Below the pieces are notes generated by a model. The model ran no database searches, was not told where the DNA came from, and saw only the letters and a list, made by a program, of their open reading frames with translations. A program made the position numbers and the translations under genes. From NCBI GenBank assembly GCA_963797095.1, contig CAWCNY010000002.1:1152001-1216000 (forward strand): 64,000 bases of DNA. The letters are read 5' to 3'. This DNA is from an uncultured Chloroflexia bacterium. GTDB lineage: Bacteria > Chloroflexota > Chloroflexia > QHBQ01 > JADMIH01. Below, piece by piece: positions 3,087-60,643 of the stretch. Position 1 is the stretch's first letter, and each line of letters opens with the position of its first letter.

Positions 3087-4046
3087 TCATGGGCGGGTCG
3101 CGAATCCCTCGCGCAGCCAGGAAATAGCCAGGGCCATCGCGCCGCGAGCCGCTGCGGTGTTCGCCAGCGCATTCAGCATGACGAAGTCGTGGATGATTCC
3201 CTCGAACCGGGCAGCAGTCACACAAACCCCGGCCTCTCTGAGCTTGCTTGCGTAGGCTTCGCCCTCGTCGCGCAGCACATCCGCCTCACCCGTTATCACG
3301 AGCGCCGTGGGAAGCCCTTTCAATTGCTCAATGCTGGCCCGCAAGGGTGAGGCGGTGATCTCGTTGCGCTCGCCGGGGTCGGTAGTATACTGGTCCCAGA
3401 ACCACATCATCCCGTCGCGACGCAGGAAGTACCCTTCGGCGAATTGGTGATATGACTCTGTATCGAAGTTGGCGTCGGTCACAGGATAAAAAAGGAGTTG
3501 GCGCTGGATGACCGGCTCCCCGCGCTCTTTGGCAAGCAAGGTGACCGCTGCCGCCATGTTGCCTCCTACACTGTCCCCAGCCACCACCAGGCGCTCAGGG
3601 TCCAACCCATATTCGACCCCTTGCCCGCTGGCCCACTTCGCCACCGCGTAACATTCCTCGATGGCGGTGGGGTACTTGGCTTCGGGGGAAAGGCTGTAAT
3701 TCGGGAACACCACTGCTGCCTCGGCTCCAACCGCCAATTCCCTAATAAGGCGGTTGTGAGTATGCTTGTTGCCGAACACCCATCCTGCACCGTGAATATG
3801 CACTATAACTGGAAGTATTGCCGGGGCGTTCTGCGGCCGCATAATGCGAACCGACACCTTCCAGCTCGGGCCGCCTTCTACGACGGTATCCTCGATATCA
3901 ACCGGCAACTCATCCACCGGGCCCGACTGCACCTCATCAACTGCGGCGCGCCCCTTTTCGGGACCAAGATCGAACAAAAATGGTGGATTGGCGGTTGCTT
4001 CAGCGAATGCCATGGCCTCGGGTTCTAGTTGGATTTTTGTTGTCAT
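3087..4046 (-). CDS. HSL-family (Aes-like) esterase/lipase
   Basis: HGAGW, GDSVGG, D-VLRDEG and HDF motifs. Confidence 0.92.
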   Translation of the reverse strand: MTTKIQLEPEAMAFAEATANPPFLFDLGPEKGRAAVDEVQSGPVDELPVDIEDTVVEGGPSWKVSVRIMRPQNAPAILPVIVHIHGAGWVFGNKHTHNRLIRELAVGAEAAVVFPNYSLSPEAKYPTAIEECYAVAKWASGQGVEYGLDPERLVVAGDSVGGNMAAAVTLLAKERGEPVIQRQLLFYPVTDANFDTESYHQFAEGYFLRRDGMMWFWDQYTTDPGERNEITASPLRASIEQLKGLPTALVITGEADVLRDEGEAYASKLREAGVCVTAARFEGIIHDFVMLNALANTAAARGAMALAISWLREGFATRP

Positions 4047-4370
4047 TTCTCTGCCTCGCCATCTAGTAGTCTGTCAAGCGGCATTTGGTAGGTGCGTTAC
4101 GACTGAGCTGCCGTTGCTGGTACCTATCAGATTAGGCTTGACAGACTAGTAGTCTTATTTGAGTGGTCTTTTCTTATTGCCGCGGGCGTCATGGCATTTA
4201 CCGCCTATGCTCATCTTGAAAAACAGATTACCGAAGGGGTAGTTTTACCCATTGTGTACTTCTCCTGGTTGCGAAAAGGCCCCAAATGGGAGAGCATCCC
4301 ATTCCCTCGTAAAACAACACTCATATCGATCTTATGTCGATACCATGTATCCTTACCTTGTATCCTTACC

Positions 4371-4761
4371 TTAGCGGGCGTTATCGCTTCTGTCGTGAGA
4401 AATTCCACTCATTTCGGGGTTCGGCAGCAGTCCCATGCGCAAGGCGTGCAGCGCGGCCTCTGTCCTGGAAGACACCCCTAACTTATCGAAAATATGGTAA
4501 AGGTGGTTTTCAACAGTCCTTATGCTTATCTCTATCTTTGCACATTTCAAAGTGACTCCTTTGTGTCGTTAGTGACTCGCTCTTAGCTTCTCTGCGGCTA
4601 ACAGGGCCAATGTAAGCTGGCCGTATTTGCGAGAACCTCTGTACGGCTTCAGTGGGAAGCCAGATAAAGGTTCGATTGCAAAAGCCCCTTGCTTTAGCTA
4701 TGGGGTAGCTTACTGGTTCCCTCCTCAATCTGACAGATCTATTTCTCTCTCGCCTCGTCAA
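4371..4761 (-). pseudogene. Small LuxR/GerE-type HTH gene interrupted by a 166-bp insertion
   Basis: TTG at 4761 overlaps the upstream TGA. N-terminus reads LTRRE; C-terminal part reads ISIRTVENHLYHIFDKLGVSSRTEAALHALRMGLL. Removing 4548-4713 restores a 75-codon frame, though its first half is degenerate. Confidence 0.6.
4548..4713 (+). mobile_element. Non-autonomous IS200/IS605-like element resembling a TnpB right-end (omega/re) RNA scaffold
   Basis: Ends in the hairpin AAGCCCCTTGCTTTAGCTATGGGG followed by TAGCTTAC. GTAAGCT (4612-4618) is complementary to terminal AGCTTAC (4707-4713). No ORF and no target duplication. Confidence 0.55.
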
Positions 4762-49138: not shown

Positions 49139-51871
49139 TTGAATCCAAAACCGGAAACACCAGAGTACACTCGCCTGCACAGCACATCTGAAGGGTGGCG
49201 GCGCTGGGGGTCTTACCTGAGCGAACGCGCCTGGGGCACCGTGCGCGAAGACTATAGCCCCGACGGTTCCGCCTGGTCCTATTTCCCGCACGACCACGCC
49301 CGCTCGCGCGCTTACCGTTGGAACGAAGACGGCCTGGGCGGTATCTGCGATGATGCTCAGCGACTTTGCCTGGCGCTCGCTCTCTGGAACGGGCAGGATC
49401 CCATCCTCAAAGAGCGCCTCTTCGGCCTCTCAGGCCCCGAGGGCAACCACGGCGAAGACGTCAAAGAATACTACTTCTACCTCGATAACACCCCCACCCA
49501 CTCCTACATGAAGATGCTGTACAAGTATCCGCAGCGCGCTTTCCCCTATAACGACCTTGTACAGACCAACCGTCAGCGCGGCAAGGGCGATCCCGAATAT
49601 GAACTCGTAGATACGGGCATCTTCGCTGAAGATCGCTACTTCGACGTTTTTATGGAATACGCCAAGTCGCGCCCTCGCGATATGCTGGTCCGAGTAAGCG
49701 CCACCAACCGTGGCCCCGACCCCGCCGAATTGCACATCCTCCCCACCCTCTGGTTCCGCAATACCTGGAGCTGGCAGGACGAGCACAACGGTATCGAGGC
49801 GGCTCCCACCATGCGCAAGATCGCCCCCGGCATGGTGCTGGCCCAACACCCGACCCTCAAGTCGTACCGCCTCACCTGCCAGGGCGCGCCCGATCTCCTC
49901 TTCACCGAGAACGACACCAACGTGGAGCGCCTTTACGGCGTGCCCAACCCATCTCCCTACGTCAAAGACGGCATCAACAACGCTATAGTCAACGGGCAAA
50001 GCGATGCCGTGAATCCCGCCGCCACAGGCACGAAGTCCTCGGCTCACTACAGTTTCATCATACCTCCGGGTAAGACCGTCAGCATCCGGCTATGTCTGAC
50101 CTCAGTACCCAAGGGCGAAAGCCACGTCCCCCGGCGCGATCCCTTCGCCAACTTCGATGCGATCTTCGAGCAGCGCAGGCAAGAGGCCGACCAATTCTAT
50201 GCCTCCATCCAACCGCCCGCCCTCACCGGCGACGAAAAGCTTGTGCAGCGCCAAGCACTGGCGGGCATGCTCTGGTCCAAGCAGTTCTATCATTACGACG
50301 TGGCCGAATGGCTTAGTGGCGATCCGGGCCAACCCCTTCCCCCTCCACAAAGAGACTATGGTCGCAACCATGAATGGTCGCACCTCAACAGCGCCGACGT
50401 TATGTCCATGCCCGACACCTGGGAGTATCCCTGGTTCGCTGCCTGGGACCTCGCCTTCCACTGCATCCCCCTCGCCCTGGTCGACCCCACCTTCGCCAAA
50501 GAGCAACTCATCCTCCTGGGACGCGAGTGGTACCAGCACCCCAACGGCCAGGTGCCCGCCTACGAATGGAGCTTCGGCGATGTCAATCCGCCCGTGATCG
50601 CCTGGGCCGCCTGGCGCATCTACAAGGTCGAGGAGAAGCTCTACGGCAAAGGCGACCGCGCCTTCCTCGAGCGCGTCTTCCACAAGCAACTCCTCAATTT
50701 CACCTGGTGGGTCAACCGCAAAGACGCTCAAGGTATGAACATATTCCAGGGCGGTTTCCTGGGCCTCGACAACATCGGCGTTTTCGACCGCAGCGCGCCC
50801 CTCCCCACCGGCGGCTACATCAGCCAGAGCGACGGCACAAGCTGGATGGCTATGTTCTGCCTCAACATGCTCACCATCGCCCTCGAACTGGCCGTGCGCG
50901 ACCGCGTCTACGAGGATATAGCCACCAAGTTCTTCGAGCACTTCCTCTATATAGCCGCCGCCATGAACAACATCGGCGGCGATGGCATTCCTCTATGGGA
51001 CGAGACTGACGAATTCTATTACGATGTGCTCCACCTGCCCAGCACCGACGGCTCTCCACCTGTCAACGTCCCCTTGAGGGTCCGCTCTATGGTCGGGCTT
51101 ATTCCCCTCTGTGCGGTCACCATTATTGAGCCTGCTCTCCTCACAGCTCTCCCTGACTTTGACCTCCGCCTGCGCTGGTTCCTCAAATACAAAGCCGAAC
51201 ATGCCAGCCTCGTCTCGCGCTGGTACGATGCCGGTGTGGGCGAGCGCCGCCTGGTTGCCATCCTGCGCGGACATCGCATGAAACGCATTCTCAGCCGCAT
51301 GCTCGATGAGGCCGAATTCCTATCCCCCTACGGCATACGCTCGCTCTCTCGTTACCACGATCAGAATCCCTATGTTCTTGAGTTCGGCGGCGGGCGCTAC
51401 GTGGTGGCTTACGAGCCTGCCGAAGCCGAAAGCGCCCTCTATGGGGGCAACTCCAACTGGCGCGGCCCCGTCTGGTTCCCGGTCAACTATATACTTTTGG
51501 AGGCGATCCAGCGCTTCTATCAATATTACGGCGATGACTTCAAAGTGGAAAGCCCCACCGGCTCAGGTCATCTCCTTACCCTGGGCCAAATTGCCGGCGA
51601 TCTCGCGGACCGCATGATATGTATCTTCCTTCGTAACGCCGAAGGTAAAAGGCCCGTGTTCGGCGACCACCCTTTGTTTTCCACCGATCCCAACTGGTGC
51701 GACTATATACCCTTCTACGAATATTTTCATGGCGACATCGGGGCGGGCCTGGGCGCAAGCCACCAGACCGGCTGGACCGGGCTGGTCGCCGAGCTAATCC
51801 AACAAATGGGCGAAAGCCGCGCACCAGGCGAAGGCCACCCCTCCCCCGACGACCCCGCCGCCTACCCCTGA
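49139..51871 (+). CDS. GH63-like (MGH1-type) glycoside hydrolase
   Basis: [39 protein letters not shown]. Confidence 0.9.
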
Positions 51872-51939
51872 CGACCCCGCCGCCTACCCCTGACGACGAA
51901 AGATGAAAGATATCAAGTGACGGTGCCGATTAAGCAACG

Positions 51940-52006
51940 CGCAATACGCAATACGCAATACGCAATACGCAATACGCAATACGCAATACGCAATACGCAA
52001 TACGCA
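51940..52006. repeat. Heptamer tandem repeat (CGCAATA)x9
   Basis: Read directly from the sequence. Confidence 0.95.
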
Positions 52007-52178
52007 GTGCGTCACCCCCATTACACATACACGCCGTTTCATCTGTTCTAACCTTGCTTATGCCTTGTCACACGTGCAGATCCAGGCAATAAAGTACTGA
52101 TTCATGCGCAATCTCGCTACCAAAAGTAGTAGTACCAAACTACCATCTGGACACACACCTTTAGGTATCTTCACCCCC

Positions 52179-52208
52179 TTGTAATATCCACAGTGCCCTT
52201 GCTATAAT
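52179..52208 (+). promoter_or_regulatory. Candidate sigma70 promoter of the sensor gene
   Basis: TTGTAA, 18-bp spacer, TATAAT with extended -10 TG. Confidence 0.55.
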
Positions 52209-52450: not shown

Positions 52451-55219
52451 GTGATGACAAACCAACAATCCACGGACGGGACCTCCACACTTACATCTAC
52501 TAACCGGCTTTCCAAGGATGCGGCTATGGACCCCCGTTCACTACTCACCAACCATATACTCCCCTACACCTCGGCCCCCCCGGCTGCCAGGTCTCTTGTT
52601 GTTGCCCGCACCCCGGCCGGTTCCAGCCATCACACCCTCTTCAACCTCTCAATGCACGAGTGGTTGCGCCTCATGCTCGCTATAGTGGTGACCACCACCT
52701 CCGTCGTCTTCATGCTCGCCGTCCCTTTCCTCACAGGCCGTCCCTCCGACCTCGGCTTTACCTTTGCCGGCGACCAGACTGGGCGCGAAATTGTCCAATG
52801 GGTCGTGCCTAACGGGCTTGGCTACAACGAGGGCGTGCGCCCCGGCGACCGGGTGCTCGCCGCCTGGAGCCTCGGCGGCACAACCGAGGACGGAGGGGGC
52901 ATCGCCGTAAGCGTTGCTCTCGACGGGGGCAGCGGCAGCACTGTCACCATCTCCACCAGGAGCGCCGGGAATATCTCCCCGTTACAGAAGTTCAGCTTCC
53001 TCTTTCTTGCTGTCATCTTCATTGCCGTCGGTGGACCCGTCTACGTCAAAGCCAGGCAACGGTCCGCAGCCTCGGCTTTCTACCTCTTCTGCTTAGCCAG
53101 CGCAATCTGTCTGATCCTCGCCTCGATATTCCACCTCCAGTACCCATGGATACTGGCATCTATGATTATCGGGATAACCGTGTGGGCCTCTGCTTTCGCA
53201 ATCTTCTTCCTCAAATTCCCACTAAAGGTAGGCAAGACCGCTCGCCAGCATAACTTTTTCGTTTTCGCGATTGTATTTCTTGGTTTCGCGGCTGTAGCTC
53301 CTTATTTGTACAGCTTCTTTGTCGATTCCGATTACTATACAGTTGCCCAGACCGCGATCTCGGCCTACTTAGCTCTATGTACGGTAATCGGGCTGGGCAG
53401 CCTGGTACGGGCCTTCTTTATGCAGCGCTCCAAACTGGTGCAAAACCAGCTGTCGGTGCTTGTAATCGGTACGGCCCTGGCTGTTTGCCCCTCACTCCTT
53501 TTGGGCATACTCCCTACCCTGGTCGGTATACAGGGGCTTGGGGTAGAGTTTACCGCTCTCTCGTTGGGCATCATGCCCATGTCGCTGGCCTACGCCATCA
53601 CCCAGCACCAATTGCTTGGCATCCGTGGGCTGGTGCGTCGTGGCGTCATCTATGTGGTTATGGGCTTCGCGGTGCTGATGATCTTCTCCCTGGGTGCGGT
53701 AGCGTTGGGGGCGGTTCTACCTGAGGGCTGGTATAGCGGCGACTTCGGTCTGCTAGCTGTCAGCTTCTTTGTCTTCGTAATAGCGCTCTCCTACGGCTAC
53801 ATCCAGAACACAGTTGAAGTATGGGTTGATAAGTTTATCTACCACGACGGTTATAACTACAAAGAGGCCCTTCTTGAGTTCAGCTCCCAGCTTGCCACCG
53901 AGCAGGACCTCGACAGGCTGACAACCAATCTGGTGGAGCGCACCTGCAACCTGATGAACCTCACCTGCGGGGTTTTGCTCCTCGCAGAGCATCCTGAGAT
54001 CGGACCGTCGGCCCAGCCATCTTATCCAACCGTCCCCAACGGCGATGCCGCACAGACAAACAGACCTCAGGCCACGGATGAGTTGCGCGTTGTGCCTTAT
54101 GCTCGATTCGGGCAAGGCTCAGAATGGTTGATCGAAGGTCTTCAGAAGGAACTGGCAGACCTGGGCATTCACCTGGTGGGTAGTGATTTTCCTCAGCTCA
54201 TGTACTTCAACAATCGCACTCAGCCCCTGGAAGGCCTTGACTTTTCGAGCTACAACAGCGGCCAGCTATTCGATAACTATAATAGCTCCAAGTTAGAGGG
54301 TATTCTCTCTACCACCGTTGCCGGCCAGCCTGGGCAATCTATCACCACGGGTCAATTTGAATTTGAGGGCGAAGCGCCTGCGCGCCCAGACGGTGCGGTG
54401 CAAGTCCCCAATACAGGTACAGGCGCACGGATGATGCGCTCATTCCTGGGAGTGCCTCTCTGGACCCGCCAGCGTTTCGTGGGTATGCTCTGCCTCGGAA
54501 ACAAGCGCACCGGCGAGCACTTCACCAAAGACGACCTGGCCTTGCTCGGCACGCTCAGCACCCAGGCTTCCCTCGCCATATACAACGCACAACTCTTCGA
54601 AGCCCAGCGCCAGGCCTTGATCGGCACAATCGAGGCGCTCGCCCATGCTATCGAGGCCAAAGACGGCTACACCATACAGCACTGCGAGCGTATGACCGAG
54701 CGTGCCACCGCCCTCGCCCAGGCGATGAATCTGCCCGCACATGAGGTCGAGAACATCCGCATGGGCGCGATCCTGCACGATATAGGCAAGATCGGCATTC
54801 CCGACTCCATCCTCAATAAACCAGCCAGGCTTACTCCCGAAGAGTACGAAATAATGAAAGAGCACCCGGTTATTGGAGCGAGGATCGTGCAGTCGGTGGG
54901 TGCGCTCACAGGAGTTGTCTCTATTGTGAAGCACCACCACGAACGCTTCGATGGCAGCGGCTACCCTGACAGACTTAAGGGCACCGATATACCGCTTGGC
55001 GCTCGCATCATCGGGGTTGTCGATACCTACGGCGCTATGACAGAGGATCGCGTGTACAGGGCTGCTCCCGGTCATCGAAAAGCTGTCGAAGAACTCGCCA
55101 GTCTTGCAGGTAAGCAATTCGACCCTGAGCTAGTAACCGCGTTCCTCCTTCTGCTCGACGTTCGCCCTGATCTGGCCGAGCTTTCCTCCACGCTCCAGGC
55201 AACCACTCGCCTCCTGTAA
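52451..55219 (+). CDS. ComP-like membrane sensor (TM, PDZ-like, about 8 TM) fused to GAF and an HD-GYP phosphodiesterase
   Basis: LGFTF...VVPNGLGYNEGVRPGDRV (PDZ-like) followed by a hydrophobic helix array. GAF-like VPLW...VGMLCLG...FTKDDLALL. AIEAKDGYT.QH, LHDIGK, HHERFDGSGYP, IPLGARII. True start may be downstream. Confidence 0.85.
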   Translation: MMTNQQSTDGTSTLTSTNRLSKDAAMDPRSLLTNHILPYTSAPPAARSLVVARTPAGSSHHTLFNLSMHEWLRLMLAIVVTTTSVVFMLAVPFLTGRPSDLGFTFAGDQTGREIVQWVVPNGLGYNEGVRPGDRVLAAWSLGGTTEDGGGIAVSVALDGGSGSTVTISTRSAGNISPLQKFSFLFLAVIFIAVGGPVYVKARQRSAASAFYLFCLASAICLILASIFHLQYPWILASMIIGITVWASAFAIFFLKFPLKVGKTARQHNFFVFAIVFLGFAAVAPYLYSFFVDSDYYTVAQTAISAYLALCTVIGLGSLVRAFFMQRSKLVQNQLSVLVIGTALAVCPSLLLGILPTLVGIQGLGVEFTALSLGIMPMSLAYAITQHQLLGIRGLVRRGVIYVVMGFAVLMIFSLGAVALGAVLPEGWYSGDFGLLAVSFFVFVIALSYGYIQNTVEVWVDKFIYHDGYNYKEALLEFSSQLATEQDLDRLTTNLVERTCNLMNLTCGVLLLAEHPEIGPSAQPSYPTVPNGDAAQTNRPQATDELRVVPYARFGQGSEWLIEGLQKELADLGIHLVGSDFPQLMYFNNRTQPLEGLDFSSYNSGQLFDNYNSSKLEGILSTTVAGQPGQSITTGQFEFEGEAPARPDGAVQVPNTGTGARMMRSFLGVPLWTRQRFVGMLCLGNKRTGEHFTKDDLALLGTLSTQASLAIYNAQLFEAQRQALIGTIEALAHAIEAKDGYTIQHCERMTERATALAQAMNLPAHEVENIRMGAILHDIGKIGIPDSILNKPARLTPEEYEIMKEHPVIGARIVQSVGALTGVVSIVKHHHERFDGSGYPDRLKGTDIPLGARIIGVVDTYGAMTEDRVYRAAPGHRKAVEELASLAGKQFDPELVTAFLLLLDVRPDLAELSSTLQATTRLL

Positions 55220-55452
55220 CCCATAGACATCGCTCATTGAGGCGCGGGTATTTTCTCACCACAGTACCCGGTTCGAGTTCAGATTCGGACTCGCGGACGC
55301 GTAAGCTGCACCTAAAAAGAGCAAAATTGGCGGCAAAGCCGCCAATTTTGCTCTTTTTAGAAGGCCCCTCCCCGAAATATTGGGGAGGGGTTGAGGTGGG
55401 GTCTTGGGGTTACAGGAGGCGAGTGGTTGCCTGGAGCGTGGAGGAAAGCTCG
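55177..55452. repeat. 46-bp perfect inverted repeat (55177-55222 and 55407-55452)
   Basis: The arms are exact reverse complements; the left arm is the 3' end of the HD-GYP gene. Confidence 0.92.
55312..55360. terminator. Bidirectional intrinsic terminator
   Basis: CTAAAAAGAGCAAAATTGGCGGC-AAA-GCCGCCAATTTTGCTCTTTTTAG, a 23-bp perfect stem. Confidence 0.85.
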
Positions 55453-55719
55453 CGCGAATGTGGAAAACTACCGGCCATATCCTGCGAATTCCGTCCGGGA
55501 TTTACCCTCCACACCGTTCCAGTGTCCGATCTTATACGGCCTTGTAAGCTATAATCATGCCTTGCCGGGTGCCGATTTCCAGGGTATTAGCCAATCTCGG
55601 CTAACACTCTGAAGCCTCTTTAACCCTCAAATCACGCCTAAAATAACCCAAATGTCCCGATTAGTAGGCAACTTTCCTAATATTCAGTACTATTTGGCTA
55701 CTACTTTGTGTAAAACCTC

Positions 55720-55748
55720 TTGACAAGGACTAATCCGTTTGGTATAGT
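55720..55748 (+). promoter_or_regulatory. Strong sigma70 promoter for the peptide gene
   Basis: TTGACA, 17-bp spacer, TATAGT with extended -10 TG. Confidence 0.8.
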
Positions 55749-55853
55749 GTGCTAGCGGAATAGCCACTCGCAATGATTTGGGGAGTAGGACCTTTCTCCT
55801 AACCCCAGGCGGTTGTGTCAAATCGGAACCCTACCACTATGAAGGAGTAGACA

Positions 55854-56045
55854 GTGAACCTCAATATTCTCGAAAAAGTAGCACGTGCAGCGAAGAAGAA
55901 TAGCAATGTGATGAAGAGCGTCGTAACCCCCACCGAGCACAAGGATCTTTCCTCACTCTCGATGCAGATCGCCGCCAACCTGCGCTCCAATGGCTCCGCC
56001 GCCAACCCGGCGATCCCTGCGCAGGTTTATAGCATGTGGATCTAA
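55854..56045 (+). CDS. Putative ComX-like pheromone/RiPP precursor, 63 aa, ending ...PAIPAQVYSMWI
   Basis: SD AAGGAG then GTG, dedicated promoter, single Trp at the penultimate position, directly upstream of a ComQ-like enzyme. Confidence 0.75.
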   Translation: MNLNILEKVARAAKKNSNVMKSVVTPTEHKDLSSLSMQIAANLRSNGSAANPAIPAQVYSMWI

Positions 56046-56081
56046 TCGCAACACGTAATCTACACAATTCTCTATATCTTC

Positions 56082-56111
56082 CCTATGGCCTGGAGCGTTC
56101 CAGGCCATAGG
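56082..56111 (+). terminator. 13-bp hairpin between the peptide and prenyltransferase genes
   Basis: CCTATGGCCTGGA-GCGT-TCCAGGCCATAGG followed by TGTTT. Confidence 0.7.
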
Positions 56112-56127
56112 TGTTTATAATGGTTGC

Positions 56128-57192
56128 ATGAACAGCGATATCTCAACCTCGGACGATTTTGATATAGAAACCGCCCTTCTGGCAGCAGACGACGCCCTCA
56201 AGGCGACGCTCCGGCGGTATGCAGACCTCCTTCCTCCAACCCTCATCAGGATGGGCAAAACTGCTCTAGGTGCGCCGGGCAAGGTGATGCACTGGCGAGC
56301 CGTTACTGCCGAAGGCGGCGCGGCTCCAACCCCCAATTGGCCGCTGATGGTATTTCGTGGTTACAGGGCCGCTTTGCCCAGGGAAGAGCGCCACACCTGG
56401 CGTCGTGCCCTTCCCATCGTGGTGTCGGTTGAGATCATGGTGGCGGCCACCGACCTCATAGACGAATGGACCGATGGCGATCCCAGCGCCGTAATCTCCG
56501 ACTATGGCCCCGGCCAGGCGCTGAACACTGCCAGCCTGATGCTGGTGATGGCCCAGCAAGTGCTTGTGTGGGCCGCGCGTGAGGGCGATGACCGTGCTTT
56601 TGTCGCTCTTAGTGCTCTCCAGGATTTGTTGGTGGAGGCGGCGGTGGGCCAGCACCTCGATATGCTCTATGAGGGCATGGGCCTCGACGAGGTAACTCCC
56701 CAGATGAGCGGCGATATGAGCGAGAAGAAAGCAGGCGCTCTCATTTCCGGTGCGCTCAAGATGGGCGGTCTGAAGGCGGGTGCGCAGCCTGAGGTAGTGG
56801 CACTTTTGGAGCGGTTCGGCAGGCGTGTGGGTGGCGTTGCCCAGACCGCCAACGATATGCGCGATGTCATGCCACAAAGAGACTCAACTGATAGATTGGG
56901 CCAGCCTCTCACCAATCCGAAGACCGACATCCGCAAGCGCAAGCGCACCCTGCCCATTGTCTACACCCTGCGCGAGGAAAACGACAGCCCCAACCCTCTA
57001 CAGCAGGCTTTCAGTGCTCCTCCTGCCGAGGACGAAGATGAGGAAGCCCTGCGTCAGGCTATCGTAGAAGCGGGCGGTATCGAGTTCGCGAGCATGGCAC
57101 TCGATATGTATCGCCAGGACGCGGCGCAGGCCCTGCAAGAGCTTGACGCACTCCGCCCCGGCGCGCTGGATGAGCTTTCGTTCCTTCTTTAG
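56128..57192 (+). CDS. ComQ-like isoprenoid-synthase-fold prenyltransferase
   Basis: First Asp-rich motif DLIDEWTDGD without the following RRG; GQHLD; KKAG; second motif QTANDMRD; no GKRxRP. Confidence 0.75.
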   Translation: MNSDISTSDDFDIETALLAADDALKATLRRYADLLPPTLIRMGKTALGAPGKVMHWRAVTAEGGAAPTPNWPLMVFRGYRAALPREERHTWRRALPIVVSVEIMVAATDLIDEWTDGDPSAVISDYGPGQALNTASLMLVMAQQVLVWAAREGDDRAFVALSALQDLLVEAAVGQHLDMLYEGMGLDEVTPQMSGDMSEKKAGALISGALKMGGLKAGAQPEVVALLERFGRRVGGVAQTANDMRDVMPQRDSTDRLGQPLTNPKTDIRKRKRTLPIVYTLREENDSPNPLQQAFSAPPAEDEDEEALRQAIVEAGGIEFASMALDMYRQDAAQALQELDALRPGALDELSFLL

Positions 57193-57204: not shown

Positions 57205-59064
57205 TCAGCGGGCCAGCGGTTGCCCGCACTTGCCGCAGAAGCGCGCGTTCGGTGGGCTTATTTGACCGCAATTAGCGCACTCTATGGATGAGGTACTTGC
57301 CGGGCTTTGCGGCGTGTGCTCCGTGGTCATGGTCTGTGTAACGGAGCCTGTTTCTCCTGTCGCCTTCTCTTGCCTGATGCGCTCGGCGTGAGGGGATCCC
57401 GATTGTCCGGTGCGCAACTTGCGATTATCCCCTCCTGAGATAGCGCAATCGGGGTCGATCATATTGCCGTGCTCGTCTATAGCCTGAATGTGCAGATGCA
57501 CCTCATACTGGGCCGGCCCTCCCGGCCCGGTGCCGCCTGTCCTGCCCAGTTTCGTGTTAGCCCCCACCTGTTGACCCACCGAAACGTACACCTCCGACGC
57601 GTGCAGGTGCTGAATACGATTGCCGTTCTCCACCTTCACTTCGATCATGTTGAACGGCCCACCTGCATAAGTAACCTCGCCTGTCACGCAGGCCTCAAAA
57701 TCGAGCATGGCGGGCACGTTGTATTCATCGTTGCTGGTGAAATCTATACCTGAATACCAGGGACCCATCGAAGGACGCGTGCCAGGGCAATCGGACCTGC
57801 TGTTGGCAGCGGGCAGCCCAAAAAGCGATGCTAGGGCTTCCGGGCACGGTGTTTCTCCCTCGTTATCCTGCGAATCCTCATCCTTGGTGCTTTCCTGATC
57901 GCTCGTGTTAGCCGCATCCGTCTGGGTGAGCACTCCGCCTACAACCAGCGCTGCCTCGGCTGCATCTACCACAGGTTGGATGTCGGGTGGTATCACAGGC
58001 TCCGGCTGTACCTGCTGTGTTGGTGGTGCCGAGAAGCCTGTTTGTGTGCCGGTGGCAGGCGGGGCTTGCGGGCCAACGCCTGCCGGCTGCGTGGTCCCTG
58101 ACGGGCTAACCGTAGAAACCGTGCCAACAGCGGGGGCCGCGGGAGCCGCAACCGCAGGTACAGTGAGCGACCCTGCGCTACTCGCACTGTTCGCTGATGA
58201 GCCTGCCTGCGCGAAGCTTCTCATAGCACCGCCACCCATACCTGTGACCAGGCCGCTCGCTATAGCAGCAATCACCCCGGCTCCCACAGCTACTCCTACA
58301 GCGACAGCGTTGCTGATGTAGTCCCACGGCCTGCCCCCGAACGTGTCGGACGGATTGCCTGACCCGGCGGGGACGGATGTCGCGCCTGGGACTGGCGTCT
58401 GCCCGGGAGATGTTGCACTGCCCGGCCCCGGCGGTGGTCCGCATGCAGGGTCGTTAGCTTTGGGACCGTTTATCTGGGTAAGACTGGCGGCGATGACCTG
58501 GGCGTTGTTCGCCGAGAAGATCAGGTTGTTGGTGTTGTTTGGGTCCGGGCCGGTCAGCACCACGATAGTGGCCATAGTGTGCGTGTCGAGCAAAAGGAAC
58601 ATCTTCTCTTCGACTGTGAAATCCCCCGCGAAGCCCGTGAACTCGCCCGAGTCGTGGAGAAGCAGCGAATTGTCGGTGCGCGCTATCTCGTTGTCTCTGG
58701 CGCTGGCGGTCTTGCTAGTCCAGCTCTCTTTTGTTTCCTCAGGGCAGGCGTAATCGATCGTGATGGCTGCTCCGGAGGGGTGTCCAGGCCCCGCCGGATT
58801 AGAATCCTGTGTTGACAGGATATAGTTGCAAACCAGGCTCAATAGCACACCGTTCTGCGTAGTGGCGTGGCTTGCGTCCTCTACCACCTGATAGTCAAAG
58901 CCCCCCGGCAAGCGCGCTGCCAGGCAGTTTATAGTGTCGTCGGCGAGTGGGGCCATAAAGATAGCCTGGCCGTCTCTCAGTCCCGCCCCGCTTGCCATGC
59001 GCCCACCCGAAAGAAGGAGCGCCAGCAATACCAGCGCCGGGATGCATCTGCTTTTTGCTTTCAA
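57205..59064 (-). CDS. Membrane-anchored protein with M23 peptidase-like domain and C-terminal zinc ribbon
   Basis: Signal peptide, internal TM, Pro/Ala linker, YSGIDF...HLH...GGTG...HLH, CANCG...FCGKCG. Confidence 0.65.
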   Translation of the reverse strand: MKAKSRCIPALVLLALLLSGGRMASGAGLRDGQAIFMAPLADDTINCLAARLPGGFDYQVVEDASHATTQNGVLLSLVCNYILSTQDSNPAGPGHPSGAAITIDYACPEETKESWTSKTASARDNEIARTDNSLLLHDSGEFTGFAGDFTVEEKMFLLLDTHTMATIVVLTGPDPNNTNNLIFSANNAQVIAASLTQINGPKANDPACGPPPGPGSATSPGQTPVPGATSVPAGSGNPSDTFGGRPWDYISNAVAVGVAVGAGVIAAIASGLVTGMGGGAMRSFAQAGSSANSASSAGSLTVPAVAAPAAPAVGTVSTVSPSGTTQPAGVGPQAPPATGTQTGFSAPPTQQVQPEPVIPPDIQPVVDAAEAALVVGGVLTQTDAANTSDQESTKDEDSQDNEGETPCPEALASLFGLPAANSRSDCPGTRPSMGPWYSGIDFTSNDEYNVPAMLDFEACVTGEVTYAGGPFNMIEVKVENGNRIQHLHASEVYVSVGQQVGANTKLGRTGGTGPGGPAQYEVHLHIQAIDEHGNMIDPDCAISGGDNRKLRTGQSGSPHAERIRQEKATGETGSVTQTMTTEHTPQSPASTSSIECANCGQISPPNARFCGKCGQPLAR

Positions 59065-59109: not shown

Positions 59110-60384
59110 TTACGATCCAGTCGCCTGAACCGGAGGTTGAGACTGCACCTGGGCTTCCGCGTTGGGCTGTTGAGCCTGCATTACCGGTAGCGGCGGGAAG
59201 ATTGCATTGAATACTATGAGCGTAAGCAGCGCCCCGATCATCAAGAGGCGCAGGCCGCTCCACGTGTTCCACAATCCCGCCACCACAATTGTAGAAAGGA
59301 GATAGGCAATAAAAGTCGCTCCCAGGAGCCGGAGCAAGGGGTGCACTTTGCGTATCGCCAGCGCCCATCGCTCAGGCACAGGTATCTGGCGGATCAGGTT
59401 GGCCCGCCACGCCCCGATCGCGCCGATCAACAGGGCCACCACTAACGTATCGAGCCACCCCTCGAATGTCCCCGCCAGCACCATCGTGAGCACGGTGGTA
59501 GCGACAGCCACCCGCACCACTTCAGGCACGCGATCTATCACGCCTTTCTTCTCGCCCGTCCAGCGCCAGCGTTCGAGGTTCGCCACCACGCCCGCGCGCG
59601 GCGACTTCGGCAGATACAACTGCACGACCAATTCCCGCGCTGCCGCCGCCACCATCGCCACAAGCACCAGCCAGACCGCCTGTTCCTGCACAGGGCTGAC
59701 GGTGCTCACGCCCGGCTCGGTGCCCACCAGGCTGAAAAGTGGGCGAATGAGGACCAGCATCGATTGAGACCACAGATAAATCAGCACCCCGAATATGACC
59801 GCATCGAGCGCCGCCTTCGCCCCTACGCGCACTCTGGGATCGTCAACAGTACGGAACTGGACCGCGCTCGCCAGTTGTCGCGCCAGCAACGGCAATACCA
59901 CGGCAGGCATCGCCAGCAGCACGTAGCTGATCGCTTTCCCCGCCAGTACGCCGGCAGGGTTGGGCACCCCGAAGGTTCCAACCCGGTTGCCCAGCAGCAG
60001 ATCTTGAACGATATAACCCGCAAGCAGCCCTACCCCCACGGTGCCGCTCAAAGTTGCCCCGGCCACCAGCAGCAGCAAGAAAGCCAGCGACTCGGTGTAT
60101 ACCTCATCCAGGTCGCGGAATATCAGGCGCGAAATCAGACCGAGCACAAAAGCAATAACCGGCGCGTACGCGGCTACGCCCCTGACAAGGGCGGTCCAGG
60201 CCCCATCGGCCATAGCCTGCGCCACCTGCGGGAACCAGTCGTCGAGCCACGCAGGTAAGCCGACCGACCATAGCTCCTCAAGTCGCTCGTCAATAGGCCG
60301 CCCCTTCGCAGGAGGCGATTGACTTTCCGGCATGTTACCCATGACAGGCACGGGATTATTGCTGCCTTCTGTGCCGCCGACCAT
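59110..60384 (-). CDS. Polytopic membrane protein of unknown function
   Basis: About 10 hydrophobic segments; ATG 60384 follows GGAGG. Confidence 0.7.
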   Translation of the reverse strand: MVGGTEGSNNPVPVMGNMPESQSPPAKGRPIDERLEELWSVGLPAWLDDWFPQVAQAMADGAWTALVRGVAAYAPVIAFVLGLISRLIFRDLDEVYTESLAFLLLLVAGATLSGTVGVGLLAGYIVQDLLLGNRVGTFGVPNPAGVLAGKAISYVLLAMPAVVLPLLARQLASAVQFRTVDDPRVRVGAKAALDAVIFGVLIYLWSQSMLVLIRPLFSLVGTEPGVSTVSPVQEQAVWLVLVAMVAAAARELVVQLYLPKSPRAGVVANLERWRWTGEKKGVIDRVPEVVRVAVATTVLTMVLAGTFEGWLDTLVVALLIGAIGAWRANLIRQIPVPERWALAIRKVHPLLRLLGATFIAYLLSTIVVAGLWNTWSGLRLLMIGALLTLIVFNAIFPPLPVMQAQQPNAEAQVQSQPPVQATGS

Positions 60385-60643
60385 GGCCACCTCCCGATCC
60401 TCTCCTTCGGAGAAAGGCACTGCTACTCTGCCAGATAGGCAAACCATTCAGGCCGCTCTACGGCGCGAGCGAAAACAGGTGGAAGCACGGCCAGGAACAA
60501 GACTGTTAGGCCAATCATACCACACTGTAATGGGCAATTGCATAGTCGCGTACAGTCCGCGCATCCCGCTGTATGTCTCCTTTGGCATGGCATTCGTGAC
60601 ACGCTCGATCAGAAAAAATCGAGCAATATTCGAGGAGCCAATT

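Follow-up and report, generated by a model that had tools for sequence, protein, structure and literature searches.

A putative prenyl-tryptophan peptide signalling cassette with an HD-GYP-bearing sensor in Chloroflexia

The cassette described here lies in a 64-kb stretch of DNA (hereafter the window) from an uncultured Chloroflexia bacterium (contig CAWCNY010000002.1). It consists of three open reading frames (ORFs) within positions 52451-57192, which encode, in this order, a membrane sensor with an HD-GYP output domain, a peptide of 63 amino acids (aa) and a putative peptide prenyltransferase. An original prediction, made from the letters of the window alone, had described three co-oriented genes, and all three are indeed present on the + strand, with their coordinates as first noted. 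The ComX-type prenylation of tryptophan was long held to be a Bacillus speciality. Judging from sequence comparison, the balance tips modestly towards a ComQX-type peptide signalling system whose receptor would be a one-component phosphodiesterase for cyclic di-GMP (c-di-GMP). The genes and the parts of the sensor, with its transmembrane (TM) segments, are as follows:

52451-55219, + strand: sensor gene, 922 aa (ORF, Pfam, hydropathy and an AlphaFold2 (AF2) model)
52736-52990, + strand: PDZ-like loop domain of the sensor, aa 96-180, with GLGY at aa 122-125, between TM1 and TM2
52991-53815, + strand: multi-TM bundle of the sensor, aa 181-455, apparently related to the TM region of PrsK/HisKA_7TM kinases
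53816-54610, + strand: linker helix and GAF domain of the sensor, aa 456-720; the insert at aa 546-655 is poorly conserved
54611-55165, + strand: HD-GYP domain of the sensor, aa 721-905, with HD and HHERFDGSGYP intact
55854-56045, + strand: precursor peptide gene, 63 aa, GTG start; conserved leader, variable core, W62 and one last residue
56128-57192, + strand: putative ComQ/StheQ-type peptide tryptophan prenyltransferase gene, 354 aa (Pfam, motifs)

As the original prediction had it, the 63-aa peptide carries its sole tryptophan next to the C-terminus, and it can be read directly as W62 of 63. A scan of species-representative genomes yielded 22 loci with the enzyme, all in metagenome-assembled genomes (MAGs) of Chloroflexia, and 18 of these encode a homologue of the peptide directly 5' of the enzyme on the same strand (tblastn). 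Two of the other four gave weak tblastn matches (E 0.016 and 0.017) and two are cut at a contig edge, so that the peptide-enzyme pair is found in 18 of the 20 loci with upstream sequence. All 24 peptides from these loci end in tryptophan plus one residue. The possibility that the peptide might not be conserved, raised together with the original prediction, is thus answered by its conservation in 18/22 loci and by its invariant penultimate tryptophan. The conserved part is the leader, which follows the pattern MNLNxLEK..R.., ..P.EH[KR]S..SLS.QIAAN (mean identity 0.59), while the core is variable (0.23); M1, R11 and W62 are the sole invariant positions in an alignment of 25 rows, two distant members among them. 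Searching 1.84 billion representative proteins with a profile of the peptide gave 46 matches at E <= 1e-3. Leaving out two long proteins, 37 of the remaining 44 database relatives have a penultimate tryptophan; those without it are P0238, P0252, P0256, P0258, P0262, P0265 and P0267, some of which look truncated or unrelated. By these comparisons, the 63-aa ORF is a real, conserved precursor. The Pfam ComX model (PF05952) matches neither the peptide nor any other place in the whole genome; its positive control, B. subtilis, was matched, though below the curated cut-off. In terms of sequence, the peptide family is accordingly not a member of Pfam ComX, but either analogous to it or too diverged.

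Several relatives depart from this layout. Five loci (L038, L040, L042, L046 and L053) contain two precursor copies. An opposite-strand gene for a DUF2339 membrane protein of 700-820 aa separates the two tandem precursor genes from the enzyme in L038 and L040; the same precursor-enzyme spacing recurs in L046 and L053, with an intervening gene that was not domain-scanned. Furthermore, the database peptide P0227 (104 aa), a relative of the precursor, has two core-like modules in succession, both with the ending ..R/TRAWL, and looks as though one precursor encoded two pheromone units.

The enzyme has a divergent polyprenyl synthase fold (PF00348, E 4.7e-17), and its best NCBIfam match lies far below the cut-off. 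In a profile search of the PDB it matches 3nf2 (E 1.9e-20) and the indole prenyltransferase Ord1 (9v4g, E 1.1e-5). Its first aspartate-rich motif (TDLIDEWTDGD) is retained, and the second reads AQTANDMRD, an NDxxD 'pseudo-SARM' version of the second aspartate-rich motif, by the definition (NDxxx) given in the StheQ preprint cited below. Across 22 aligned members, D109, D112, D116, D118, K201, Q239, N242 and D243 are invariant and E113 is nearly so, and PGKVM stands in place of GKRxR, the usual motif for binding isopentenyl diphosphate (IPP). The same features extend to the 124 database relatives found at E <= 1e-5: among the 120 listed, which are 48-78% identical and come almost entirely from Chloroflexia/Chloroflexota MAGs, 119 show D..D[DE]..D.D and 119 the pseudo-SARM signature Q..ND. 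The functional residues given for the Sphaerobacter thermophilus enzyme StheQ in its preprint are D82, D85, E86, D89, D91, K174, Q212, N215, D216 and D219 (10.64898/2026.08.29.745113). The window residues D109, D112, E113, D116, D118, K201, Q239, N242, D243 and D246 equal these positions plus 27 throughout, matched by residue numbers only. Together with the pseudo-SARM and the replacement of GKRxR, this constant offset bears out the ComQ-type motif changes that had been predicted, and by analogy with StheQ we strongly infer that the enzyme transfers a prenyl group to Trp62 of the peptide.

Most homologues of the enzyme are automatically annotated as geranylgeranyl diphosphate synthase, and the JGI name 'competence protein ComQ' appears on 4 of the 120 listed. 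Taken at face value, the automatic annotations favour an ordinary polyprenyl diphosphate synthase that has a small ORF of chance origin and an unrelated sensor as its neighbours. The NDxxD form of the second motif and the exchange of GKRxR for PGKVM contradict this, as do the conservation of the small ORF with its invariant tryptophan and the conserved synteny of the locus. Moreover, the genome holds two other polyprenyl synthases, both canonical and with an FQIxDD-type second motif where examined (L002), so that the ComQ-like enzyme is not needed for chain elongation. We consider this explanation scarcely credible.

The sensor accompanies the pair in most relatives: an orthologue (42-72% identity) lies directly 5' of the peptide in 14/20 close loci with upstream sequence. 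A survey of the co-occurrence of sensor, tryptophan peptide and ComQ-like enzyme, proposed as a check of the original prediction, hence supports the association, with the peptide-enzyme pair in 18/20 and an adjoining sensor in 14/20 loci. In partial Mantel tests on 11 genomes, the peptide core shows weak covariation with the enzyme (r 0.33, p 0.017).

The sensor is predicted to have a cytoplasmic N-terminus followed by TM1, an extracytoplasmic PDZ-like domain, about nine further TM helices, a GAF domain and the HD-GYP domain. In a hydropathy scan, TM1 spans aa 76-94 and the roughly nine further hydrophobic helices fall within aa 181-451. An AF2 model of aa 60-520, built with 13 relatives (pLDDT 67, pTM 0.64), agrees with this picture and shows TM1, a five-stranded β domain with a short helix, a helical bundle and a long exit helix. 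The region of aa 187-514 matches the NCBIfam model of PrsK (TIGR02916) with E 5e-10 and 38.6 bits, at a cut-off of 300. HisKA_7TM (PF16927) has no match in the window sensor, matches one of 13 clade members (E 5.5e-6) and some database homologues, and has no match in the B. subtilis control genome. The C-terminal piece of the GAF domain (aa 657-712) is recognized by Pfam with E 2e-10. Mean pairwise identity is 0.31 for the PDZ-like part, 0.50 for the TM bundle, 0.28 for the insert, 0.79 for the C-terminal part of GAF and 0.75 for HD-GYP, which makes the PDZ-like loop the most divergent folded part of the sensor. Among 83 close database homologues of aa 60-520 (E <= 1e-52), 77 carry HD_5, and the six without it are short.

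PDZ domains typically bind free C-termini. We regard the PDZ-like loop as a candidate reader of the peptide because of its GLGY motif, its high divergence, this mode of binding and the matches in relatives: PDZ_6 matches 4/13 clade members (best E 1.5e-7) and PDZ 3/13, several database homologues are matched as well, and so is the kinase-bearing relative in L067 (PDZ_6, E 1e-6). Among the weak Foldseek matches of the modelled N-terminal part are seven-transmembrane (7TM) proteins (G-protein-coupled receptor, rhodopsin) and the PDZ-bearing CtpA proteases (E 0.05-0.08). A complex prediction of this part with the peptide scored 0.00, which weighs neither way.

HD-GYP domains hydrolyse c-di-GMP or related cyclic dinucleotides. 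In the window sensor, Pfam HD_5 covers aa 730-894 with E 9.7e-41 (HD model, 1e-20), and full-length alignments in the PDB include PmGH (4mcw, E 3.7e-33), V-cGAP3 (5z7c, 1.9e-30) and PA4781 (4r8z, 1.6e-25). The window sensor and its 12 closest homologues, 13 proteins in all, keep HD and HHExxDGxGYP. The same genome also encodes c-di-GMP machinery at 13 GGDEF and 7 HD_5 places. The original prediction had further held that the locus has no kinase or ComA gene. Three single-sequence phmmer probes for kinases and response regulators matched no ORF of >=100 aa in the 64-kb window (E <= 1e-3), and the sensor itself is without a kinase domain, in agreement with this claim.

To place the sensor in a wider context, we turned to a phylum sample of 401 Chloroflexota genomes. 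Outside the window genome, the best enzyme matches in this sample are 25-31% identical and have pseudo-SARM motifs. All 17 distant loci that were fetched with long flanks have a gene for 753-997 aa on the 3' side of the enzyme, on the same strand, that matches the TM module of the window sensor; in L073, it is split by one stop codon. An enzyme cut-off of E <= 1e-20 proved too strict, several sensor-linked enzymes scoring 1e-14 to 1e-18, and the linkage was re-derived from the sensor side. The TM-module profile matches 98/401 genomes. Of its 28 strongest places (E <= 1e-20), 23 were examined, with four in unpublished genomes and one congener left out; a ComQ-like enzyme adjoins 11 of these 23, and a contig end cuts three. 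The gene arrangements are:

family f28: peptide, enzyme, then a TM-GAF-HisKA-HATPase kinase
L076, L079: enzyme, followed by a TM-GAF-HisKA_3-HATPase kinase and a REC-GerE regulator
L077, L078, L081: HisKA_3-HATPase kinase and REC-GerE regulator pair, as in L076/L079
L067: TM-GAF-HisKA_3-HATPase kinase with PDZ_6 after the enzyme; no adjacent regulator in the flank
L073: peptide, enzyme, TM-GAF-HATPase_c sensor (no HisKA-type domain scored), REC-GerE regulator
L084: enzyme whose second motif is atypical, followed by a TM-HisKA kinase and a REC-HD-GYP regulator
L071 and the window clade: TM-GAF-HD-GYP fused in one protein

The same TM module thus carries kinase outputs beside more distant ComQ-like enzymes, which agrees with the earlier description of the window sensor as having 'HD-GYP instead of a kinase'. 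This swapping of outputs on a retained TM module supports the reading of the sensor as a receptor. The peptides of L073 and L090 can be aligned with the window family and end in WM and WF; one and the same peptide family therefore pairs with kinase receptors in some lineages and with HD-GYP in others. In a quick, unrooted tree of 41 TM modules, the HD-GYP sensors of the window clade form one supported clade and L071 sits elsewhere on a long branch, so that the tree holds at least two changes of the HD-GYP label. In L084 (genome G362), a 329-aa regulator with REC and HD-GYP domains (3517-4506, - strand) directly follows the TM-module HisKA kinase and a gene with the isoprenyl diphosphate synthase (IPPS) fold, whose second motif is QLLDDLED and not a pseudo-SARM. 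This locus may be a two-component counterpart of the HD-GYP fusion in the window.

The f28 genomes (L059-L066, L068-L070, L072 and L074-L075) encode a second family of precursors beside ComQ-like enzymes. Their leader follows MEEQQIQEFVHRVS.DE.LR.EL..., with sub-threshold similarity to Nif11/NHLP leaders (E 2e-4 to 0.03), and they end in C-termini of WWxx, WWx or FWSH type; a TM-GAF-HisKA kinase comes next.

The DNA around and between the window genes holds the following further features:

52179-52208, + strand: sigma-70-like promoter candidate 5' of the sensor gene (TTGTAA-18-TATAAT, 10/12; consensus match only)
55278-55408, no strand: copy of a short dispersed repeat, ~100-130 nt, with a perfect 23-bp palindrome at 55312-55360 and A-run/T-run flanks
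55720-55748, + strand: promoter of the peptide gene, close to consensus (TTGACA-17-TATAGT, TG-extended, 11/12)
55841-55847, + strand: ribosome-binding site GAAGGAG, 6 nt 5' of the GTG start of the peptide gene (read from the sequence)
56082-56111, + strand: candidate attenuator between the peptide and enzyme genes, a hairpin with a 13-bp stem and a weak T tail

The region of the promoter candidate for the sensor gene contains 3 promoter-like sites, at 2.8 expected from shuffles. The dispersed repeat has dozens of matching places across the contigs of its own genome (74-93% identity); it is REP/MITE-like (of the repetitive extragenic palindrome or miniature inverted-repeat transposable element type) and probably acts as a bidirectional terminator 3' of the sensor gene. 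An ORF at 55237-55554 sits in this repeat DNA and was not taken as a gene. The repeat copy is bracketed by the arms of a 52-nt inverted repeat (55177-55228 and 55401-55452, 96% complementary), which are unique to the locus. The left arm comprises the last 43 nt of the sensor gene and 9 nt beyond, and the whole looks like an inverted duplication of the sensor-gene end or a long 3' stem. Further upstream, the heptamer CGCAATA occurs in ~12 tandem copies at 51931-52013, ~440 nt 5' of the sensor start, and a 22-nt direct duplication (51843-51886) lies at the end of a gene for a GH63-like protein. This neighbour (49139-51871, + strand) encodes a 910-aa MGH1-like/GH63 glycoside hydrolase. On the other side, 57205-59064 (- strand) encodes a protein of 619 aa that combines an M23 peptidase domain with a zinc ribbon at its C-terminus, and a membrane protein gene lies at 59110-60447. 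None of these three is conserved beside the cassette in relatives, and the two downstream genes were excluded as parts of it.

Several observations weigh against a dedicated peptide receptor with phosphodiesterase output. Of the sensor architecture originally predicted, the TM segments, the GAF domain and the intact HD-GYP domain have been borne out; the PDZ-like domain fares less well, since in the window protein itself PDZ_6 matches aa 114-137 below threshold (E 0.031, 14.4 bits at a cut-off of 27). Likewise, a Foldseek search of the PDB with the model of the N-terminal part (pLDDT 67) returned no match at E <= 0.001. The sensor is not adjacent in 6/20 close relatives; five of these six genomes were searched, and four have one sensor orthologue elsewhere (E 2e-99 to 3e-171), the fifth having no detectable one. 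Beyond shared descent, the partial Mantel tests on the 11 genomes, whose distances are near saturation, found no covariation of the peptide core with the sensor, neither in its PDZ-like domain (r 0.02, p 0.45) nor in its TM bundle (r 0.10, p 0.26). At nine of the 23 strong TM-module places, the fetched flanks lack a ComQ-like gene, from which it follows that the module does not serve these peptides exclusively. Finally, several phyla contain atlas neighbours that carry PDZ, HisKA_7TM and GAF, although these are leads only. Turning to the output domain, 64/83 clade sensors (P0135-P0203, loci L035-L050) have HQE instead of HHE, and a tyrosine occupies the position aligned to a glutamate of PmGH in 78/78 pattern-matching sensors of the 83 scanned. 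In PmGH, this glutamate is a ligand of the third metal.

These points on the input side are in line with a different arrangement, in which a prenylated peptide is made but the sensor is the receptor of another cue, such as the state of the envelope, the C-terminal peptide of another protein, or light or redox via GAF, and is linked to the pair because c-di-GMP controls the production of the peptide or the response to it. The missing covariation between peptide and sensor, the nine places without a ComQ-like neighbour and the six relatives with an unlinked sensor all fit this explanation, as do the separate promoters of the sensor and peptide genes with a terminator-like repeat between them. 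What it accounts for less readily is the linkage of the TM module to ComQ-like enzymes across at least three enzyme/peptide clades and four output types, a pattern that a cognate input module should show. In ComQXPA and lantibiotic systems, moreover, it is the sensor next door that receives the product. We therefore think a sensor for another cue unlikely.

The substitutions in the output domain raise a further alternative, namely that HD-GYP serves here as a c-di-GMP-binding or protein-interaction output instead of a hydrolase and that signalling proceeds without a change in second-messenger turnover. The prevalence of HQE and the tyrosine at the presumed metal-ligand position make the catalytic strength uncertain, and HQE may mark a shift in the metal site or in activity inside the sensor clade. 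The window protein, together with its 12 closest relatives, nevertheless keeps HD and HHExxDGxGYP, and the domain as a whole is well conserved (0.75 identity). A non-hydrolytic output appears very unlikely to us.

A third explanation concerns the peptide, which could be a membrane-anchored or an antimicrobial or surfactant lipopeptide, with the sensor serving autoregulation or immunity and not the reading of cell density. The two different precursors in each of L038, L040, L042, L046 and L053 recall the natural-product clusters of peptides made by ribosomes and modified after translation (RiPPs), and the Nif11/NHLP-like leaders of the f28 precursors, sub-threshold as they are, are of a kind typical of RiPP precursors. 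Yet no conserved immunity, ABC-transporter or further tailoring genes accompany the pair in the window, its constant partner is a sensor, and a hypervariable core around one fixed modified residue resembles the diversification of pherotypes. A lipopeptide of this sort seems quite unlikely.

In some relatives, other genes lie 3' of the enzyme. A transporter of the MFS_3 'transmembrane secretion effector' type is found there in L033, L034, L038, L040 and L041 (outside L033 by similar N-terminal sequence), together with an ArsR-type helix-turn-helix regulator (L034, L038, L040, L041), a GNAT protein (L033, L040, L041) and an S9 peptidase (L033, L034). Pfam assignments of these 3' genes cover the L033 proteins and the L034 regulator only. 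They are possible candidates for export or processing; none of them adjoins the window cassette.

Under the favoured reading of peptide signalling to a phosphodiesterase receptor, the cassette would work as follows. By homology, the ComQ/StheQ-type enzyme very probably binds the conserved leader of the precursor and places a prenyl group, farnesyl or geranyl, on C3 of Trp62. Removal of the leader and export of the lipidated C-terminal peptide would follow. As gene linkage and output swapping suggest, the peptide would be sensed outside the cell by the PDZ-like loop, the TM bundle or both; the position of the modified tryptophan, one residue from the C-terminus, would suit the PDZ mode of binding free C-termini. 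A conformational change, passed on through the linker helix and GAF, might finally alter the hydrolysis of c-di-GMP or a related cyclic dinucleotide by HD-GYP, so that the level of a second messenger would report cell density, with neither a kinase nor a response regulator involved. The original prediction had proposed a quorum-sensing variant in which the pheromone controls a second messenger. Comparative genomics supports this through conservation, linkage and output swapping, with peptide binding and phosphodiesterase control as the parts that we infer.

A broader proposal, to which we give somewhat less than even chances, is that Chloroflexota possess a large, undescribed family of prenyl-tryptophan peptides, with a PDZ-loop/multi-TM receptor that reads the lipidated C-terminus; in the window clade, the two-component relay would have collapsed into one polypeptide, in which occupancy by the pheromone directly gates c-di-GMP hydrolysis by HD-GYP, a one-component connection between a peptide quorum signal and a second messenger, and L084 would be the two-component form of this output. 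The data suggest that one and the same input module has been wired to NarL-type transcription regulators, to a REC-HD-GYP regulator or directly to HD-GYP. The locus and its relatives thereby supply candidate receptors for the tryptophan-prenylation chemistry of Chloroflexi. If the proposed mechanism is true, it joins peptide quorum sensing and the turnover of c-di-GMP within a single protein, provides a defined ligand/receptor pair for widespread PDZ-7TM sensor modules and offers synthetic biology a compact, orthogonal switch from peptide to second messenger.

[quoted passage not shown] It was the sole find of our full-text literature searches for ComQ/ComX in Chloroflexi and confirms the statement in the original prediction that ComQ homologues had been reported from Chloroflexota. 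Both systems come from Chloroflexota and share the trans-IPPS fold, the motifs D-E-x-x-D-x-D and Q-x-x-N-D-x-x-D and an adjacent precursor of 60-70 aa with tryptophan second from the C-terminus, which in StheX is the published prenylation site. The published StheX positions I62, G63, G66 and W68 fit the 69-aa peptide of L090, which is alignable with the window family. The enzyme/peptide half of the cassette is therefore a further case of the recently described StheQ/StheX kind. The two differ in gene order, stheX lying 3' of stheQ according to the preprint and the window peptide 5' of its enzyme. They also differ in the conserved sensor partner of the window cassette: in its available text, the preprint names no receptor, calls the biological role unknown and contains no instance of the terms HD-GYP, receptor, kinase or phosphodiesterase (10.64898/2026.08.29.745113). 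Our full-text searches likewise found no paper that joins ComX-type peptides with HD-GYP and no description of the receptor, in keeping with the earlier statement that such a coupling is undescribed. As far as the literature was searched, the new part is thus the sensor, a conserved partner whose kinase and HD-GYP outputs are interchangeable.

With ComQXPA of B. subtilis, the cassette shares an IPPS-fold enzyme with a pseudo-SARM, a short precursor with a variable core and a fixed tryptophan, and a neighbouring multi-TM sensor. The HisKA_3 kinase and REC-GerE pairs of the relatives L076, L077, L078, L079 and L081 correspond to the ComP/ComA architecture. It differs in its gene order (sensor, peptide, enzyme), in the PDZ-like loop and in the PrsK/HisKA_7TM-like bundle, and above all in its output, which is HD-GYP in a 64-kb window without a kinase or regulator match, in contrast to the ComP kinase and ComA of ComQXPA. 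The tryptophan stands at position -2 in the window peptide and reportedly at -3 in ComX168. According to the preprint, StheQ is only 19% identical to ComQ (10.64898/2026.08.29.745113). A ComP-ComA-like kinase-regulator pair has been noted in chloroflexi by KEGG assignment (PMC8895600).

On the side of the sensor, PrsK (TIGR02916) resembles the TM bundle and GAF over the stretch noted above, with a score far below the cut-off; unlike PrsK/HisKA_7TM proteins, the window sensor has neither a kinase domain nor a PEP-CTERM/exosortase context. PmGH, V-cGAP3 and PA4781 have HD and HHExxDGxGYP in common with it. Their input domains are soluble and REC-like or GAF-like, in contrast to the PDZ-like/multi-TM and GAF input described here. 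In the diffusible signal factor (DSF) system of Xanthomonas, a fatty-acid signal is received by the hybrid kinase RpfC and passed to RpfG, a separate HD-GYP response regulator. There, too, a quorum signal ends in the activation of an HD-GYP c-di-GMP phosphodiesterase, and L084 shows the same two-step layout, whereas the window has sensor and HD-GYP in a single polypeptide and a prenylated peptide as its presumed signal.

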